NCBI GenBank assembly: GCA_003132125.1
Contig: PKWT01000031.1
Location: 1-33,109, forward strand
DNA: 33,109 bases
Direction of reading: 5' to 3'
Source: Micrococcales bacterium
GTDB lineage: Bacteria; Actinomycetota; Actinomycetes; Actinomycetales; Dermatophilaceae
Made by a program: the position numbers and the translations under genes. The notes beneath the pieces are model-generated. The model searched no databases and was not told the DNA's origin. It saw only the letters and a program-made list of their open reading frames with translations. Below are positions 3,592 to 19,756 of this stretch, piece by piece; the stretch's first letter is position 1; each line of letters starts with the position of its first letter.

Positions 3592-4018
3592 CTTCGGAGA
3601 CGCTGGACCCGGCGGACACGGCACGCAGCCGGTTCAGCAGCTCCATCGTCCGCAGCTCGAGCGGGGACACCAGGTCGAGACGGTCGTGACGGTTGACCTG
3701 GTCGAGCATCCGCGCGTTCAGCCGCGCCATGCGCGAGAGCGTCCGCCTCCACGGCGGCTCGCCCGTCAACCCGCGCAGGTCGCGGCGCAACGCAGTCTCG
3801 ATGCTGCCCGCCGGCGCGGTGAAGTCGATCGACAACGGAGCAGCCACGGGCTCGACGTCCGCGAGGACGACCGCGGCCGCGACCTCCTCGTAGACGAGCT
3901 CGCGACGCTTGTTCGCCCGGTACGTGCGCATGTAGTCGCGCTTGGCCGCCCGGCAGATCTCGCAGTGACATCCGCGGCGGTAGCCGGCGAGGCCGTGGTT
4001 GGTCACCGGAGTCGCCAT
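3551..4018 (-). CDS. terS: Terminase small subunit (putative)
   Basis: 155-aa ORF directly upstream of terL. The N-terminal GYRRGCHCEICRAAKRDY motif is common in actinophage small terminases and DNA-binding proteins. GGAG lies 7 nt upstream of the ATG. Confidence 0.7.
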   Translation of the reverse strand: MATPVTNHGLAGYRRGCHCEICRAAKRDYMRTYRANKRRELVYEEVAAAVVLADVEPVAAPLSIDFTAPAGSIETALRRDLRGLTGEPPWRRTLSRMARLNARMLDQVNRHDRLDLVSPLELRTMELLNRLRAVSAGSSVSEDAAAFLSDLGSSD

Positions 4019-10616: not shown

Positions 10617-11272
10617 GCGGTGTACCTGCTTTCGATGTTGAGGGCTTGGCGGTCGCGGAGGATGGTGCGGGCGGTTGAGGAGCAGCGGTGGGCGATCTTG
10701 GCGTCGGAGATGCCCTGGGCTGCGAGGCGAGTGACGATGAGCCGCCTTTCGGTGCGGGTGAGGGGTGTTCGGTGGCCGGTCATGGCGCGTCGGATCGCGA
10801 CCTCGTCGACTGCGGTGCTGGGTGGGGGGCCGAGTGACGGCTTGGCGGTCGGGTCGTCGATCGTGTCGTCGTCCCACGCGAGGGGTGGTGGCCAGCCGGC
10901 GGCCAGTGCGCGGGCCCGCGTGATCGCGGACGGGCCGGGCGTCATGGACAGGCGGTCGTAGAGGGCGGTGATCCGGCGGGCGGTGGTGGCCTCGATGCGG
11001 GGACGCTCGTCGGTGAGGTGGTGCACGGCGGATCGGGTGACGCCCAGGCGCTCGGCGAGGTCGCCATAGGTCCAGCCGATCGCCGAGAGTGCCTGGATCC
11101 GGCGGCGGGTGCCGACCGCGTTCAGCATGTGCGGGTTGCCGGTCAGGACGTCGAGGCGGTAGCGGGACTGGCGGCGGGCGGTGGCGGCGCTGCAGGGCGC
11201 GCAGCGGCACCCTGCGGAGTACCGGGCGGGCGTGCCGTGCCCGGGGGTGGACCCGGGGATGCCGCGGCTCAT
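10613..11272 (-). CDS. Helix-turn-helix DNA-binding protein (219 aa, two HTH-like segments)
   Basis: Trimmed to ATG 11272 (ATGA overlap). Contains the GTPARYSAGCRCAPCSAA motif, HTH GWTYGDLAERLGVTRSAVHHL, and a C-terminal HTH GISDAKIAHRCSSTARTILRDR. Confidence 0.78.
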   Translation of the reverse strand: MSRGIPGSTPGHGTPARYSAGCRCAPCSAATARRQSRYRLDVLTGNPHMLNAVGTRRRIQALSAIGWTYGDLAERLGVTRSAVHHLTDERPRIEATTARRITALYDRLSMTPGPSAITRARALAAGWPPPLAWDDDTIDDPTAKPSLGPPPSTAVDEVAIRRAMTGHRTPLTRTERRLIVTRLAAQGISDAKIAHRCSSTARTILRDRQALNIESRYTA

Positions 11273-11973
11273 ACCCCACCGACAGGTGCGTGGTAGGTGT
11301 CCTGGTCGTCGCGGATAGCCCGCTCCCAGCACTGCCCGCACGCGACGCCGCCGACCATCGACCGGTTGGCGTGGTGCACGGGCGTGCACGCGGCGGCCGC
11401 GACGTCGGCGAGGCAGTGACGGGCGGTGAACCACGTCGACCTGGGTGCACGGCGTTCGGCGATCGCCACCGACTTGTCGTGCAGCTCGCGGGCGAGGGCG
11501 GTTGCCTCGGCGACGGTCATCTCCTTCTTGACCACCATCTCAGTGACGTCACCGGGCAGGGTCCGCAGCAGCAGCCGACCGGTGATCGTCGACGCGGCGT
11601 ACCCGGTGCGCTGGGAGATCTCCGTGATCGTCATACCCGTGTCCCGCAGCGCCTGGAACGCCGCGGCCTGCTCGACGGGGCCGAGGGCCTTGTGCATCGC
11701 CGCGGCGAGCATCACCGCCACGTGAGAGGCCGAGGCCATCCGGGACGAGAGCGCCAGACACGGCAACGACTTCGCGCCGATCAGCTTCGCCGCCGCGAGA
11801 CGACGATGCCCGTCCACGACCACCCACCCGGTGCCCGACTGCGCGACCACGAGCGGCTGGAGCAGACCCACCGCGCGGATCGACGCGGCCAACTCGGTCA
11901 GGTCACCAAGGTCCCGGCGGACGTTGTGCGGGTGCGGGTGGATCTGGTCAACGGCGATCGTCGGGATGCTCAT
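11269..11973 (-). CDS. ParB/Srx-fold (ParB-like nuclease domain) protein, 234 aa
   Basis: [17 protein letters not shown]...[33 protein letters not shown] is the ParB N-terminal domain with a GxRR arginine patch. An HTH follows ([17 protein letters not shown]), and the C-terminus is Cys-rich. Confidence 0.88.
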
Positions 11974-13028
11974 GACCTCTCCCGCAGGGTTGCGAGCGCG
12001 GCCGGAAGCTCATCGGGTGCGGTGAGGACGTCGCGGGCCCGGGATCCGTTGCGCGGGCTGACGATGCCGGCGGCCGCGAGCGCGTCCATGAGCCGCTCGG
12101 ACTTCGCGAAGCCGACCCGGAGCTTGCGTTGCAGCATCGACGGTGACCCGAACTGGGTCGTGATGACAAGGTCTGCGGCCTGGGCGAGGAGGTCCGCGTC
12201 GCCCGGGTCGTCGTCGCGGATGATGCGCAGCGTGTTGACGCCGGCGACCAGGACACCGGAGCCGTGGCGGAGGATGTCGGCGGCCTGGCGGGTGAGGTCG
12301 TCGACGACCGCGGCCGGGACCGCGACCTTGACGGGGCGGCGGATCGGGTCGAGGACACCGGCCCACTCCACGGTGCGATCGGTGTCCTTGCGCCGGTCAT
12401 CCTCGTCGACGAGTGACGTCTCGCAGAACCCGAGGAGCGCGTCACCACACCGGATCACCAGGCTCTGGGATCTCGCGGTGATGATCGGCAACGATCCCCA
12501 CGCGGCCGCCGACGCCACGAACCGGCCCAGCAGGGCCATGTCCGCGCGAACTTGCACCGTCGACACCTGGCGGGACGTGAGGGCCGCGTGCATGATCCGA
12601 GGCAGATCCGGGTACGTGTCATCGCCAGTGATCTGGATGTGCGGGACCGTCAGCGAGCGCCCGTCGAGGAAGTCGGAGAGCTCGGTGAGCACGACGCGGT
12701 GATCGGTGCGTTCGATGCGCAGGTCCTGGTTGTCCCACATCATGCGGGCGTCCGGGTCTGAGGGGGCGCGGAACACCGCGAGGACGGCCTTGGCGGCCGC
12801 GACGGACAGGTCCCAGCCGTCCGCACCGCCGTCGAGGTGCTCGGCGCCCGTGCACCGTGCTACGACCCCGGTGTGACGGTCCGTCGCCCACACGAGCAGG
12901 GCGCCGCTGATCGGCAGGAACCGCAGGCGCCCGAAGTCGGGGGTCGACTCGGACTCCTTGCCGGCGTGCGGGAGGACCGAGGCGATCGCGGCACGCATCT
13001 GGCCCCGGCGGACCGTCATGGTCGTCAC
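11970..13028 (-). CDS. Beta-sliding-clamp-like N-terminal region fused to an FtsK gamma-type winged helix (about 352 aa)
   Basis: Trimmed from the 532-aa ORF to GTG 13028 (GTGA overlap); ATG 13019 is an alternative. N-terminus [36 protein letters not shown]...[11 protein letters not shown] resembles DnaN domain patterns. C-terminus [49 protein letters not shown] matches the FtsK gamma consensus. Confidence 0.75.
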
Positions 13029-14557
13029 GGCTTGGCCTTCGTGTGGGTGTCGATCGCGAGCTGCTCGACGGCCGCGAGGGGGTAGCCCCACGCGGCCAGG
13101 CGCACCAGGTGCGCGACCCAGACCGGCGCCTCGTAGCTCTGGCGCGCGTGCCAGAAGTCGCGCGCCCAACCGTGCTCGGCCTGCGCGGCCGCGAGCGCGA
13201 CCAGGTAGCGCAGTGCGGGGCCGGGCCGGTTGAAGTCGCGGAGCAGGTTCCGGTTGAAGTCGCGGAGCAGGTCCCGGTCGGAGAGCTTCTTGTCGCCGTA
13301 GAGCAGCTCCTGCGCCAGGGCGTCGTCGAGGAGGTTGAAGCGGCCGGCGTGCAGGATCTCGGCGACATAGGACTCGGCGTCGGCCGGCAGCACGGTGCGC
13401 TGCAGGAAGTCGTGGATCCACGCGCGGCGGACCGTGAACGCGGCATCGGAGGCCTTGTTGTTCGCGATCAGGGCGCGACGCTCGGCCTTCTGGTCCTCGT
13501 CCTGAGGGCCCGACGTCGCACCGGAGGACGCCTGCGCGTACCGGTTGACGTGACCGAGCATCTTCCACATCACGCAGTAGCAGGTGATGTCCGCGACGAA
13601 GCCGCGGTTGGCGGAGTGGTCGGACCAGTCGGGCTGCGCGGAGACGAAGACGCGGTGCCCGGGGCAGTCGGCGTGGTTCTCCGGGGTCAACCTCACCCTG
13701 CCGGCCTTGTCCTTGAGCTGGTCGATCTGCTCGACGTCCTTCGACCCGTACTTCGGACGTTCGTCCAGGGCAAGGATCCCCGCCGGCAACGCGGCCACAG
13801 CGGCAGCGATCACCACCGCACGGCGACGGTCGTCGCGGAACCCCTGGGCGGCGTGGACGAAGTCGCCCTGGTCTTCGGCGGCGACCTCCTCCAGTTCCCT
13901 GATGGTGTCCGGGGCGTCTTCGAACTCCGCAAGCACCGCCAGCTGGTCGATCGTCAGATCCGGGTGGGCCGCCATCGACGTCGACGCGGCCTTCGACGCG
14001 GCCACGAGAAGGGCCTGCTCGACGGTCCTCTTCGGCTGACCGGTGCGCTTCGCGATCGTCGTCGCGGACCGCCCGAACGCGGCGAGCTGCTCGAACGCAC
14101 GAACCTGCTCACCGTCCGTCAAGGCCTCGCGACCGGTGTTCGCGGTGAGCTGGTCCCAGATGCGGGCCTCGTCGTCACCGACCGGGGGAAGCATCGCGAT
14201 CGGCACCGACGTCAGACCGAGCTCCAGGGCGACGACGAGGCGCCGCTGCCCATCGACGACCAGCAGATTGCCCAGTGGGTCCGTCCGGCACAACAGCGGG
14301 ACCAGCACACCGTGCTCGGCGACCAGGGCCTTGAACTCCGGCGTGATCTTCAGGTCCGCGCGAGTGTTCGTGTCCAGGGTCAGCGTCGCCGGGTCAACCT
14401 CGACCCGCTCGAGACCGAGGACCTGGTGGCGACCGCCGAGGACCTCGTGACCGGCACCCGTGAGAGTGTCCAAGGCGGGCGACGGGCGGGCCTCGGTCGG
14501 CGCGGCCGCCGGCACCGGCGTGCGCTTGGTCGCGGGCTTCTTCGCAACGGTCGTCAC
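13025..14557 (-). CDS. Large ParB N-terminal-domain protein (510 aa)
   Basis: [21 protein letters not shown]...[33 protein letters not shown] is a ParB/Srx domain with a GxRR patch. An HTH follows ([19 protein letters not shown]), then a long C-terminal region of unknown type. Confidence 0.85.
13229..13276. repeat. 24-bp tandem duplication (2 copies, 1 mismatch) inside the 510-aa ParB-like gene, encoding [15 protein letters not shown]
   Basis: gttgaagtcgcggagcaggttccg / gttgaagtcgcggagcaggtcccg, read directly from the sequence. Confidence 0.9.
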
Positions 14558-17164: not shown

Positions 17165-17443
17165 TCAGGGCGTGGGGTCTGCGACGTCGATCGCCGCGTT
17201 GAAGGCCTTCAGGGCTGGGGCCGCACGGGCGAACTCGCGGCGGTACAGCTCGAGGTGAAGGTCGAGGTCCTGTTCGCTGCCACGCAGTGAGCCGAGGGCT
17301 CTGACCATGCGGTCGGCGGCCTGGTGCGCCTCGTCGCGCAGCCCGGCACGGTCCGCGGCCGGGTTGCCGACCGAGGGCGCGTGGTACGGGTCGAAGAACC
17401 GTGGCACGTGGCGCGGCACGTCCGCCGGCGATGGCGTGGTCAC
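17165..17443 (-). CDS. Hypothetical protein (92 aa)
   Basis: GTG 17443 forms a GTGA overlap with the cro-like stop. Confidence 0.65.
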   Translation of the reverse strand: MTTPSPADVPRHVPRFFDPYHAPSVGNPAADRAGLRDEAHQAADRMVRALGSLRGSEQDLDLHLELYRREFARAAPALKAFNAAIDVADPTP

Positions 17444-17682
17444 GACGCGACCCGCTGGCTGGACACGGCGGTCGGGTCGAGCAGGTCCGCGGCGCTGACG
17501 CCGAGGATCTCTGCGATGTGCGTGATGTCGTTGACGTCGAAGGCGGTCTGCCCGCTCAGCCGCCGCGCCATTGCGGACTGTGAGCGGCCGAGTCGATGTG
17601 CGAGTTTGGACCCTGAGATCCGCTGACGTGCTAGAGCTGCTCTGACTTCCTCGGCTACCCGCTGGGTGGGTGGTGGTTGCAT
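17440..17682 (-). CDS. Cro-like XRE-family HTH regulator (80 aa), first gene of the early lytic operon
   Basis: HTH RISGSKLAHRLGRSQSAMARRLSGQ. Divergent from, and paralogous to, the plus-strand HTH gene. Confidence 0.85.
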   Translation of the reverse strand: MQPPPTQRVAEEVRAALARQRISGSKLAHRLGRSQSAMARRLSGQTAFDVNDITHIAEILGVSAADLLDPTAVSSQRVAS

Positions 17683-17689
17683 GGCAGGG

Positions 17690-17719
17690 ACGCTAACTCA
17701 CTAGGAGGGTAAGTTGCAA
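17690..17719 (-). promoter_or_regulatory. Candidate early promoter (minus strand: -35 TTGCAA, 18-nt spacer, -10 TAGCGT) giving a leaderless cro-like mRNA
   Basis: Read on the reverse complement. The -10 ends 7 nt before the ATG at 17682, and there is no SD before that ATG. Confidence 0.4.
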
Positions 17720-17738
17720 GCGCGTTCAGCAGCGTGTC

Positions 17739-17746
17739 GCATATGC
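17739..17746. promoter_or_regulatory. 8-bp perfect palindrome GCATATGC between the divergent promoters; candidate operator core
   Basis: Read directly from the sequence. TGTCGC / TGTCAC half-site-like direct repeats flank or overlap it (17735..17740, 17753..17758). Confidence 0.3.
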
Positions 17747-17770
17747 TGGGAATGTCACCCACTCGGCGGG

Positions 17771-17799
17771 TTGATTTCCTGCTACGCGACCCCTACGTT
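17771..17799 (+). promoter_or_regulatory. Candidate repressor promoter (-35 TTGATT, 17-nt spacer, -10 TACGTT) giving a leaderless mRNA starting at ATG 17806
   Basis: Read directly from the sequence. The -10 ends 6 nt before the ATG, and no SD precedes 17806. Confidence 0.45.
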
Positions 17800-17805
17800 A
17801 GCCAC

Positions 17806-18249
17806 ATGAGTCAGCAAACGGTGCTACCGCTCCCCGATCCGCAGGAGGGCCTCACGAGCCAGATCGCGCGCGCGTTGCGCGGAGTGCTCGCCGAGCGTCA
17901 GATCAGTGGCAACCGTCTCGCGCACGAGACGGGCCTCTCACAGTCGCGGATCTCGCGGCGCCTTACCGGCGAGTATCCGCTGGACACCGACGAGCTCGAC
18001 GTGATTCTCACAGTGGTGGGGGTGTCGATCGACGAGCTGCTGGACCGGGCAGCGAGAAGCCCCCGTCCGGATGGTCCGGACGGGGGCCGAAGAACAGTGC
18101 GCCATCCGCGACTCGAACGCGGAACCCGCTGGTTAAGCGTCTGCGCTGGTCAGAGCGCCCCCGATGGGCCGGAGGGCGGAGCGGACGTCATCGCGTTCCC
18201 GGGCAGCCGTCGGTCCGCCAGCACCCCGGCCGGAACTGAGGCCGCCTGA
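17806..18249 (+). CDS. Repressor-like XRE-family HTH protein (147 aa from ATG 17806), with a long C-terminal tail ending ...PAGTEAA
   Basis: HTH QISGNRLAHETGLSQSRISRRLTGE, about half identical by eye to the Cro-like protein. It is co-oriented with int. The tail is read through a hairpin and a tRNA-like segment. In-frame upstream starts (17734 GTG, 17743, 17752) are possible. Confidence 0.8.
   Translation: MSQQTVLPLPDPQEGLTSQIARALRGVLAERQISGNRLAHETGLSQSRISRRLTGEYPLDTDELDVILTVVGVSIDELLDRAARSPRPDGPDGGRRTVRHPRLERGTRWLSVCAGQSAPDGPEGGADVIAFPGSRRSASTPAGTEAA
18059..18087 (-). terminator. Perfect 13-bp-stem hairpin (gcccccgtccgga / tccggacgggggc) lying 10 nt downstream of the tRNA-like 3' end on the minus strand
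   Basis: Read directly from the sequence. On the minus strand it is followed by cttctcgc. It lies inside the repressor ORF. Confidence 0.5.
18098..18139 (-). other. tRNA 3'-half mimic (T-arm, acceptor 3' strand, discriminator A); candidate attP core
   Basis: The minus strand reads GGTT CCGCG TTCGAGT CGCGG ATGGCGC A, a canonical T stem-loop plus a 7-nt acceptor strand. The upstream CGCTTAA resembles an anticodon loop, but no pairing anticodon stem and no 5' acceptor strand exist. It is therefore a fragment, not a gene. Confidence 0.5.
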
Positions 18250-18518
18250 TGAGCACCACGACGACCCACGCGGCCGCGCGCCCGACGTCGGGCGACGAGC
18301 TGTACACGATCGGACTCGCACTGCAGGCCGAGTACGCCCGGGGCCTGGCCGCCGGGCGCGCCGAGGCCAGCGCCGCGATCGCTACCCTCGCCATCCGCGA
18401 AGAGGCCAACTGGCAGGCCGCATACACCGAGCACCGATCCCGGTGGATGCCCATGAGCTGGTACCTCGACGCACTCGAGGACGCCCGGGCCGCGGCCGCC
18501 GGCAAGGTGACCCGGTGA
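18249..18518 (+). CDS. Hypothetical protein (89 aa)
   Basis: ATG overlaps the repressor stop (TGATG). Ala-rich and helical. Confidence 0.6.
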   Translation: MSTTTTHAAARPTSGDELYTIGLALQAEYARGLAAGRAEASAAIATLAIREEANWQAAYTEHRSRWMPMSWYLDALEDARAAAAGKVTR

Positions 18519-18847
18519 GCCCGCGCGGAGACCACTCCGAGTTCTCCGGGTTCGTTCGCCGGATCCTGCGCGCCTACTCGCGGCGGTGCGCGTGCGCCGA
18601 CCCCGACGACCTCACCGAGTTGCTCGCCCTGCAGGGCGAGGTCGACACCGCCATCACCGCCGCCGTGGCGGGCCTGCGCCGATCCGGCTTCTCGTGGGCC
18701 GAGATCGCCACCGCCGCGCACACCACACGGCAGGCCGCCCAGCAGCGCTGGGGCGTCAAGGCAGCCTTGACGACAGAACCAGTTGTGCTGAACGACACAC
18801 CAGCGACACCCGTGCGCACCATCCGCGTGGCCACAGCCGCGGTCTAG
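18515..18847 (+). CDS. Putative HTH protein (110 aa); possible excisionase/regulator
   Basis: GTG 18515 forms a GTGA overlap with the upstream stop. HTH-like GFSWAEIATAAHTTRQAAQQRWG. Confidence 0.6.
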   Translation: MSPRGDHSEFSGFVRRILRAYSRRCACADPDDLTELLALQGEVDTAITAAVAGLRRSGFSWAEIATAAHTTRQAAQQRWGVKAALTTEPVVLNDTPATPVRTIRVATAAV

Positions 18848-18868
18848 CGCACAGCGGCGCCGGACAGG

Positions 18869-19756
18869 GTGACCGGCGTGACCTACCCGCCGAACGCCTC
18901 GCCCTGGGACGTCCCCACGGCCGCCTGGCTCACCTGGCTCCGTTCCGACGGGCGACCACCAGAGTCGGTCGCCGTTCGACGCACCCAGATCAGCCGACTC
19001 GCCCGCGACCACGCCCGACACTCCCCCTGGGCACTGAGCACCCAAGACCTCGCCGACTGGCTCGCGGCACACCCGACCTGGTCCCCGGCCTACCGGCGAG
19101 CCATGCGCTCAGCCGTGCGCGGCTTCTACGCCTGGGCCCGGGCCACCGGCCTGACCGAACGCGACCCCGCCCAGCTGCTGCCCCGCACCCGCCCCACGCT
19201 CCCAAAGCCACGACCCATACCCGACCAGGTCGTGGAGATCACCCTGGACGACGACGCCACCACCGAACGCGTCAAGCTGATGGTCGAGCTCGGCCGCGAC
19301 TGCGGACTCCGACGAGCCGAGATCGCCGGCGTGCACACCCGCGACATCGAGACCGTGCGCGGCGTGCTGTTCCTGCGCGTGCACGGCAAGGGACGCCGCG
19401 AGCGCCTGGTCCCGCTGCCGCACGGACTGGCGTGGCGGCTGCGCGCCGAAGGCCCCGGGTGGGTGTTCCCGTCCCCCGCACGCCCCGGGAAGCCCCTGAC
19501 AGCCGCGCACGTGGGCCGACTGGTCCGGGGTGCCCTGGGAGGCCCGTGGACGACCCACACGCTGCGTCACGGGTACGCCACCGCGGCGTACCAGGTCGAC
19601 CGGGACCTGATCGCGGTCCGCGACCTACTCGGGCACTCCTCGGTCGCCACCACCCAGGTCTACGTGCTGGCACCCGACGACGCGATGCTCAAGGCAGCCC
19701 ACGGCGCCCAACTACGGCGCCGCGACTACGGACGCGAGACGAACACCGCCGCGTGA
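18869..19756 (+). CDS. int: Tyrosine integrase (295 aa), C-terminus ...GRETNTAA
   Basis: Catalytic-type motifs GLRRAEI, HTLRHGYAT and LLGHSSVATTQVY (R...HxxR...H..Y). Confidence 0.93.
   Translation: MTGVTYPPNASPWDVPTAAWLTWLRSDGRPPESVAVRRTQISRLARDHARHSPWALSTQDLADWLAAHPTWSPAYRRAMRSAVRGFYAWARATGLTERDPAQLLPRTRPTLPKPRPIPDQVVEITLDDDATTERVKLMVELGRDCGLRRAEIAGVHTRDIETVRGVLFLRVHGKGRRERLVPLPHGLAWRLRAEGPGWVFPSPARPGKPLTAAHVGRLVRGALGGPWTTHTLRHGYATAAYQVDRDLIAVRDLLGHSSVATTQVYVLAPDDAMLKAAHGAQLRRRDYGRETNTAA

Follow-up and report, generated by a model that had tools for sequence, protein, structure and literature searches.

The 33,109-nucleotide (nt) contig PKWT01000031.1 (assembly GCA_003132125.1, assigned to a Micrococcales bacterium), the whole of which is referred to here as the window, raises the question of why the gene for a Cro/C1-type repressor should have, embedded in its coding sequence, a segment that reads on the opposite strand as the 3' part of a tRNA-Lys(CTT) gene followed by a hairpin. 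An earlier note, made from the sequence alone, had proposed that this segment is a phage attachment site (attP), integration through which would split the repressor gene. The analysis described here indicates, with a probability of roughly 85%, that positions 18097-18137 are the attP core within the repressor gene rep and are part of an integration-dependent immunity switch of a complete temperate phage of ~33.1 kb. The design is real and has been known since 2013, and the phage is a new case of it, from an uncultured actinobacterial phage; the earlier note did not recognise this established and experimentally characterised system, integration-dependent immunity (PMC3694055, PMC4557955).

A tRNA-Lys(CTT) fragment inside the repressor gene

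The element and the gene that contains it comprise the following features, in which HTH stands for helix-turn-helix and Int for the phage integrase.

17806..18249, plus strand: repressor gene rep, viral form, 147 amino acids; Pfam HTH_26 (4e-9) and HTH_3, PHROG transcriptional repressor, Cro/C1-type HTH
18059..18087, minus strand: perfect 13-bp GC-rich hairpin; predicted replacement terminator, which encodes the Rep linker PRPDGPDGG on the plus strand
18097..18137, minus strand: predicted attP common core, 41 bp; the tRNA-Lys(CTT) 3' part plus the next C after the discriminator, with the homology breakpoints of relatives at both ends
18138..18156, no strand assigned: phage-side flank of the core, CGTCTGCGCTGGTCAGAGC; candidate Int-binding arm of attP, conserved among prophages with Int 70-81% identical

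The minus strand at 18137..18098 reads CTTAA-CCAGC-GGGTT-CCGCG-TTCGAGT-CGCGG-ATGGCGC-A, a 40-nt tRNA-Lys(CTT) 3' part that extends from the anticodon through the discriminator and contains, in 5'-to-3' order, the last five bases of the anticodon loop (with the CTT anticodon), the 3' half of the anticodon stem, a variable region of 5 nt, a T stem-loop without mismatches, the acceptor strand of the 3' side, and finally the discriminator A. The portion at 18127..18098, from GGGTT onward, had been read correctly in the earlier note and is indeed tRNA-like, but the extent given there was too short, as the fragment continues for 10 more nt on the 5' side, to 18137; the guess of a CTT (Lys) anticodon was right. 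The element was also correctly placed within the 147-codon repressor open reading frame (ORF) 17806..18249, of which codons 85-94 are taken up by the hairpin and codons 98-111 by the tRNA part. The degenerate tRNA pattern CTTAACCAGCGGGTTC-NNN-GTTCGAGTC-NNN-GATGGCGCA has a single match in the window and none in 100 shuffles, and the 101-nt stretch that comprises the fragment and the hairpin has a folding z-score of -4.4 against dinucleotide shuffles.

ARAGORN calls no complete tRNA anywhere in the window, as the earlier note had expected, and Rfam searches with permissive thresholds return no tRNA match for the fragment, their microRNA and small RNA matches reflecting the hairpin only. Immediately upstream of the loop the sequence is GCAGA, as opposed to the GCTGG required for an anticodon stem, and there is no pairing with CCAGC. 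Because this sequence is unable to pair and ARAGORN finds no tRNA, the element is a tRNA 3' fragment without a 5' half, as had been proposed, and a functional tRNA gene, which would require a complete cloverleaf, can be rejected.

The silence of both Rfam and ARAGORN on the fragment would also fit an explanation in which its resemblance to tRNA is a matter of chance in GC-rich coding sequence. However, the fragment matches the 3' part of a real tRNA-Lys(CTT) at 36 of its 40 positions, the shuffled sequences yield no matches, other tRNA-Lys fragments occupy the same codons in homologous phages, and the junctions of prophages fall at the fragment. Chance resemblance is rejected, as the junction data, described in the next section, effectively refute it, and its residual probability is negligible.

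Junctions in integrated relatives

Both types of prophage junction were found in relatives, at the position homologous to the core. The int-side junctions, in the loci L006, L138, and L005 (with Int proteins 81%, 72%, and 70% identical, respectively, to that of the window), have host genes directly upstream of the int cassette and share the order host DNA, host hairpin, tRNA-Lys 3' fragment, conserved phage-side sequence, 3' end of rep, and int. In all three, the homology to the window begins at 18096-18098, which is the tRNA 3' end, and beyond this point there is unrelated host DNA with a hairpin of its own. The orphaned 3' end of rep in L006 still encodes ...TTEAA followed by a stop. A rep-side junction is seen in L001, where the reading frame of a 105-residue Rep (64% identical) enters a complete tRNA-Lys(ttt) gene in antisense and is closed by the TAA of the anticodon loop. 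In L022, a Micrococcales metagenome-assembled genome (MAG) that serves as a GTDB representative, a Rep-like ORF of 114 codons likewise runs antisense into a complete tRNA-Lys(ctt) and is adjoined by a divergent cro-like gene. In the prophages of these relatives, int is found at the opposite end from rep.

The presence of both junction types at the homologous position supports the integration inference. It agrees with the claims of the earlier note that integration splits the repressor gene, that the C-terminal third of the repressor is replaced by host-derived sequence (compare the truncated Reps of L001 and L022), and that int moves to the other prophage end, as it has in the L006, L005, and L138 prophages. 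That note had named integrated relatives with junctions elsewhere and an intact ORF as the case that would speak against it; the junctions of the relatives are instead located at the homologous core.

The phage-side flank CGTCTGCGCTGGTCAGAGC at 18138-18156 is kept in the alignment of L006, L138, and L005 (consensus ...CGTCTCCGCAGGTCACAGC) despite their differing rep tails, which makes it a candidate integrase-binding arm. The phage-side 17-mer CGCTTAACCAGCGGGTT has five matches in IMG/VR viral contigs, all of them unrelated chance ones, and a 30-nt degenerate version has none in JGI metagenome contigs. Another relative, L003, comes from a metagenome and is in the phage form: its Rep is 85% identical over residues 1-94, and a tRNA-Lys fragment of the type found in Gordonia phage GMA5 occupies the same place, next to the same hairpin. 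The L003 spacer differs by 4 nt, so that the fragment is read in another frame.

No single contig carried both junctions; the repressors of L006 and L005 are too dissimilar to be returned by a search with Rep. The search for related loci in IMG/VR gave one distant locus with Rep and none with Int. The host flank in L006 is most like MAGs of Micrococcales and Cellulomonas, at only ~65% identity.

Three further observations concern relatives of Int. Two short and independent Logan contigs with Int relatives, L007 and L139, both start at the same base inside the core (CCATCAGGGACTCGAACC...), which is what a branch of the assembly graph at a core common to attP, attB, attL, and attR would give. 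In Nocardia amamiensis (NZ_JADLQX010000011.1; L064, positions 3-1071), a gene for an Int homologue (42% identical) adjoins a tRNA-Lys(CTT) 3' fragment with no complete tRNA, which represents the int-side junction of another element, in a cultured species. A 702-kb contig from the JGI metagenome 3300010214 (L008) contains, at 3751 and 5705, two copies of a different tRNA-like fragment with an identical hairpin, 1,954 bp apart; they flank adh_short and TetR genes, and the second copy is followed by genes for Int (64% identical), a DNA methylase, and HNH and SMODS proteins. Rather than a phage, this may represent a small integrative or defence element in tandem arrangement.

The host tRNA gene and the variant T stem

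The earlier note had named the lack of a matching tRNA gene for 18098..18127 in any plausible host as a finding that would speak against it, and this is partly the case. There is no exact match, as this 30-mer was found in none of 185,579 species genomes and in neither JGI metagenomes nor IMG/VR; nevertheless, the fragment is identical at 36 of 40 positions to the widespread actinobacterial tRNA-Lys(CTT), and all four differences are in the T stem. A 20-mer covering the T loop, T stem, and acceptor also has no match in IMG/VR viral contigs. A scan in which the T arm was left free, while the anticodon arm, variable region, and acceptor were kept, returned at least 120 loci, and the matches listed come from Amycolatopsis, Micrococcales, Cellulomonas, Intrasporangiaceae, Nocardia, Saccharomonospora, Bifidobacteriaceae, Actinomyces, and others. 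The T arm is CGGGGTTCGAGTCCCTG (stem CGGGG/CCCTG) in 115 of the 121 matches listed, compared with CCGCGTTCGAGTCGCGG (stem CCGCG/CGCGG) in the window. The changes are strictly compensatory (G50-U64 to C-G and G52-C62 to C-G), and a compensatory T-stem variant is known from an Actinomyces MAG; the version in the window was found in none of the genome, metagenome, and viral collections. The 16 bp CTTAACCAGCGGGTTC, which begin with CTTAA and run up to the T stem, do not differ from the host type; a tRNA-Lys 5' half reads GCGCCATTAGCTCA....

The variant has two possible explanations. The host could be an unsampled lineage that has this T stem; or strand exchange could take place within the 16 bp of identity 5' of the T arm, in which case the T arm of the rebuilt tRNA would be derived from the phage. 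Strand exchange at that place would leave the phage T arm free to drift under selection for tRNA function, that is, for pairing, only. A related suggestion, which is tentative and rather doubtful, is that the phage carries its own evolved tRNA-Lys module (a variant T arm and a terminator hairpin within rep) and not a plain host copy. If so, every lysogen would express a chimeric tRNA-Lys(CTT) with a phage-made T arm and terminator.

The altered stem could alternatively be taken as a sign that attP is decayed or orphaned, such that productive integration is blocked and the phage persists lytically or as an episome. An exact attB found in no collection, the failure to find an integrated copy, and the presence of two genes for ParB-like proteins (11269-11973 and 13025-14557) would all be compatible with this explanation. 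Against it, the four T-stem differences are strictly compensatory, which indicates selection for a working tRNA arm, not decay; Int is intact and has all the catalytic motifs; and the 16 bp of identity are enough for strand exchange 5' of the T arm. As for the ParB-like proteins, the PHROG families that they match comprise ParB-like partition proteins and nucleases, which are common in lytic-cycle modules, and a scan of ten large ORFs turned up no ParA. A decayed attP appears very improbable.

Approximately 42 of the 121 matches listed are 3' fragments without a tRNA 5' half, mostly from Amycolatopsis (L011, L012, L017, L023, and ~40 others). ARAGORN found no tRNA in the four such loci checked, and these fragments are flanked by mutually similar sequence. 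The tRNA-Lys(CTT) gene appears to be a hot spot where other integrated elements have left scars or ends, in many cases several on one contig.

The hairpin as a predicted replacement terminator

The hairpin described in the earlier note is confirmed: its two arms (18059-18071 and 18075-18087) are 13 nt each, 100% complementary, and separated by a 3-nt loop, and in the tRNA sense it starts 10 nt past the discriminator. Among the matches listed, 74 of 79 native tRNA-Lys(CTT) genes have a downstream stretch of 60 nt that folds at -20 kcal/mol or stronger, with the pairing beginning 0-21 nt past the discriminator. The same succession of tRNA and then hairpin is seen in the host DNA that flanks the int-side junctions, and an equivalent hairpin follows the fragment in L003 and in the Gordonia phages GMA5, Coeur, and McGonagall. 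Most economically, the hairpin can be read as a putative replacement terminator carried in the attP module. After integration, the host's own hairpin would remain at the int-side junction, and the rebuilt tRNA would be followed by the phage hairpin, which thus appears to be both coding sequence and terminator. A narrow search of the literature on integration-dependent immunity systems found no discussion of such hairpins.

Repressor, integrase, and the genes around them

The remaining features of the cassette, from the divergent gene to int, are as follows.

17440..17682, minus strand: cro-like HTH gene, 80 amino acids; Pfam BetR/HTH_31/HTH_26, phrog_4583; divergent from rep, first gene of the long minus-strand lytic unit
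17683..17805, no strand assigned: rep-cro intergenic control region, 123 bp; presumed divergent promoters and operator, by position and by analogy with BPs genes 33-34 (PMC4557955)
18235..18249, plus strand: Rep C terminus T-E-A-A and stop codon; predicted ssrA-like degradation tag, removed by integration (tag concept from PMC3694055 and PMC4557955)
18249..18518, plus strand: ORF of 89 amino acids between rep and int; gene call, with a G+C content at third codon positions (GC3) of 0.91
18515..18847, plus strand: HTH DNA-binding ORF of 110 amino acids between rep and int; phrog_686 (2.7e-11), homologue of GMA5 gene 18
18869..19756, plus strand: tyrosine integrase gene int, 295 amino acids; Pfam Phage_integrase (2e-19), with R, K, HxxR, H, and Y motifs visible; ends in -NTAA

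Rep consists of the HTH (residues ~20-80), a Pro/Gly linker that the hairpin encodes, residues read from the tRNA fragment, and a tail of 36 residues that ends in -TEAA. The alignment shows that its start codon, ATG at 17806, is common to the homologues P0002 and P0003, and its best tblastn matches in GenBank phages are annotated immunity repressors. Int has a catalytic domain and a weak match to a SAM-like core-binding domain; no N-terminal arm-binding domain was found in Pfam searches. The gaps that flank int are 21 nt upstream and 13 nt downstream, the gene calls agreeing in this with the earlier note. Both rep and int read along the plus strand and face the divergent cro-like gene, with two ORFs between them. 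The 89-residue ORF has no Pfam or PHROG match; the HTH ORF has blastn matches to GMA5 gene 18 and to a 93-residue ORF in L005. A divergent HTH gene is found at the equivalent position in L001, L022, and GMA5. In the window, the cro-like protein and Rep both match PHROG 4583 and have the common motif ...ISG..LAH..G.SQS...RRL.G....; judging from this motif, their genes look like diverged paralogues that face each other. A scan of 17300-19000 for consensus (sigma-70) promoters and terminators returned nothing.

Among the 29 predicted proteins of the window, Rep and Int are the only ones with an -AA C terminus, which, at an alanine frequency of 0.142, would be expected by chance in ~2% of proteins. 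The Int homologues end in -RAA, -RRAA, -VVA, or -NVA. These tails bear on an alternative in which the attP in rep is functional but immunity is independent of integration, with a stable and active full-length Rep, an -AA end that is no degron, and a gene split that is simply tolerated. Such an alternative would accommodate the -VAS end of the L003 Rep and the extra HTH ORF at 18515-18847, which could add regulation beyond the canonical three-gene switch, and the degron role of -AA is itself a prediction. However, the -AA end is found in Rep and Int and in no other protein of the window, the tail is conserved in the orphan fragment of L006, the GMA5 Rep ends in -AAA, and the tag has been functional in every experimentally studied case of this layout (PMC4557955), all of which make immunity independent of integration improbable.

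The predicted switch

Integration-dependent immunity through the core at 18097-18137 would operate as follows. After infection, rep and int would be co-expressed, and the full-length 147-residue Rep (Rep147) and Int, both with ssrA-like -AA tails, would be degraded by host proteases. Int that survives long enough would carry out recombination between the core and the 3' part of tRNA-Lys(CTT) in the host. The tRNA gene would be restored at the rep-side junction, its 5' half coming from the host and its 3' half from the phage, with the phage hairpin as its terminator, and the rep frame would then run antisense into the host 5' half, stopping at a TGA derived from the conserved D-stem GCTCA. The product would be a stable repressor of 117 residues (Rep117; residues 1-110 followed by RASCSAN) that keeps the HTH, has lost the tag, and maintains lysogeny. 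Meanwhile, int and the 3' end of rep would go to the other end of the prophage, away from the rep promoter, and excision would restore the unstable repressor and with it lytic growth. Integration was modelled in silico by fusing window positions 17806-18137 with the 5' half, in antisense, of each genomic tRNA-Lys(CTT): a 117-residue Rep results in 78 of the 121 matches listed, with the loss of the last 37 residues, including -TEAA, and the predicted prophage Rep ends in -CSAN. The structural features of integration-dependent immunity are present in the cassette, and the proteolytic and regulatory ones can be recognised only at the level of sequence.

Several points weigh against this reading. 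The exact tRNA-like 30-mer is absent from the collections named above, and the T stem (arm at 18106-18122, minus strand) differs from that of the host type at four positions, which amount to two base pairs. An integrated copy of this exact phage, or its prophage-form Rep, is absent from the protein collection. The L003 Rep ends in -VAS, not -AA. The rep and int genes are separated by two ORFs, although such variation is known in GMA5 and in Mycobacterium abscessus prophages, and the HTH ORF at 18515-18847 could act as a directionality factor. The hairpin has no canonical T-run, its tail TTCTCGCTG being weakly T-rich, and the consensus scan calls no terminator there. Finally, the proteolysis of Rep147 and Int, the activity of Rep117, and termination at the hairpin are all predictions.

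Comparison with known systems

Integration-dependent immunity was reportedly described by Broussard et al. in 2013 (Mol Cell 49:237) for the mycobacteriophages BPs, Brujita, and Charlie (Clusters G, I, N, and P). In systems of the BPs type, rep and int are co-transcribed and face cro, attP is inside rep, ssrA-like tags are found at the C termini of Rep and Int, the truncated prophage Rep is stable and active, and Int alone catalyses recombination in both directions (PMC3694055, PMC4557955). The A135E mutation in the BPs tag raised lysogeny. The phage of the window resembles BPs, Brujita, and Charlie in its co-oriented rep and int opposite a divergent cro-like gene, in a predicted attP core within rep that overlaps a tRNA 3' end, in the -AA ends of both Rep and Int, and in a small Int in which no arm-binding domain was found. 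As in BPs, the viral Rep is ~30 residues longer than the (here predicted) prophage form, 147 versus 117 residues compared with 136 versus 103 in BPs. It differs from these phages in having no detectable DNA similarity to them, only distant Rep similarity, a host outside Mycobacterium, and two ORFs between rep and int.

Another parallel is provided by the Gordonia phages of Cluster CW (GMA5, GRU3, Jeanie, and McGonagall), whose immunity is integration-dependent and whose rep contains an attP of the tRNA-Lys type (Pope et al. 2017, PMC5559632). Their identical 37-bp attP matches a tRNA-Lys attB in Gordonia terrae, and in GMA5 an additional gene (18) separates rep from int; integration-dependent immunity is found in about half of the Gordonia phages with a predictable attP (PMC5559632). 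A tRNA-Lys 3' fragment is present inside the repressor genes of GMA5, GRU3, Coeur, and McGonagall, and in GMA5, Coeur, and McGonagall it is followed by a short spacer and a GC-rich hairpin. In GRU3 (L140), rep has two tandem tRNA-Lys 3' fragments (...CATCAGCGGGTTCGGGGTTC...) ~45 nt apart, in place of the fragment and hairpin. Cluster CW and Coeur share with the window the arrangement of fragment, spacer, and hairpin in rep (77% nucleotide identity to window positions 18061-18150); their Int is also related (~65% nucleotide identity), and GMA5 gene 18 matches 18515-18847. However, the Cluster CW genomes are 17 kb long, compared with 33 kb (33.1) here, and the shared DNA is limited to patches of 65-77% identity in the immunity cassette. 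Their core is of the 37-bp AATCAGC... type with a canonical T arm, whereas that of the window is CTTAACCAGC... (the CTT isoacceptor), with the variant T stem and in another frame. Megablast of the cassette against GenBank phages gave no match. Membership in Cluster CW is rejected because only the cassette is related; the absence of a megablast match and the genome size (33.1 versus ~17 kb) point the same way.

Prophages of M. abscessus also have attP within rep, with a stop codon at attL that truncates Rep and with int either adjoining rep or several genes away (Dedrick et al. 2021, PMC8092301). The window shares with them the attP in rep, a (here predicted) nearby attL stop that truncates Rep, and an int that is separable from rep, and it differs in hosts, attB sites, and repressor families. 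One of them, prophiGD16-1, whose repressor is at the very end of the prophage, gives a weak tblastn match to Rep. In tRNA-dependent lysogeny, a core of only ~10 bp leaves the tRNA unrestored, and the phage has to bring a tRNA gene of the same isotype with it (Guerrero-Bustamante and Hatfull 2024, PMC10865867). That system similarly involves a tyrosine integrase aimed at a tRNA-Lys gene in an actinobacterial host, whereas the window has a full 40-nt 3' part through the discriminator and no phage tRNA gene. Since the full 3' part is supplied and the phage is without a tRNA gene, tRNA-dependent lysogeny is rejected.

Genome context

The same sequence is found in five contigs of 33.1-33.2 kb, from at least two independent assemblies, and at least one of these is permuted relative to the window, ending at window position 18333 (L136 was among the contigs compared at the window ends). 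No exact terminal repeat is found in the window. It is essentially a complete free viral-form genome of ~33.1 kb and 69.5% G+C, circularly permuted in assembly, and it is on the strength of such a free, permuted, and complete genome that the window is taken to represent the viral form. The other recognisable genes, all on the minus strand, code for ParB-like proteins, the large terminase, portal, major head protein, adaptor, minor tail protein, tape measure, and endolysin; the phage is a temperate one of the siphovirus type. Both ParB-like ORFs (phrog_6218) are located on the minus strand in the early region.

Significance

The understanding of integration-dependent switches is not changed by this case, the oddities of which are the compensatory T-stem variant and a hairpin that serves as coding sequence and as a likely terminator. 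It adds an uncultured actinobacterial phage of 33 kb to those in which integration itself settles the choice between lysis and lysogeny. With a length of ~2 kb, the rep-attP-int cassette is a candidate for a compact integration and immunity module in genetic tools for actinobacteria with this tRNA-Lys(CTT). Together with the junctions in Micrococcales-like genomes, Nocardia, and other MAGs, this phage suggests that the tRNA-Lys-targeting switch extends beyond Mycobacterium and Gordonia.

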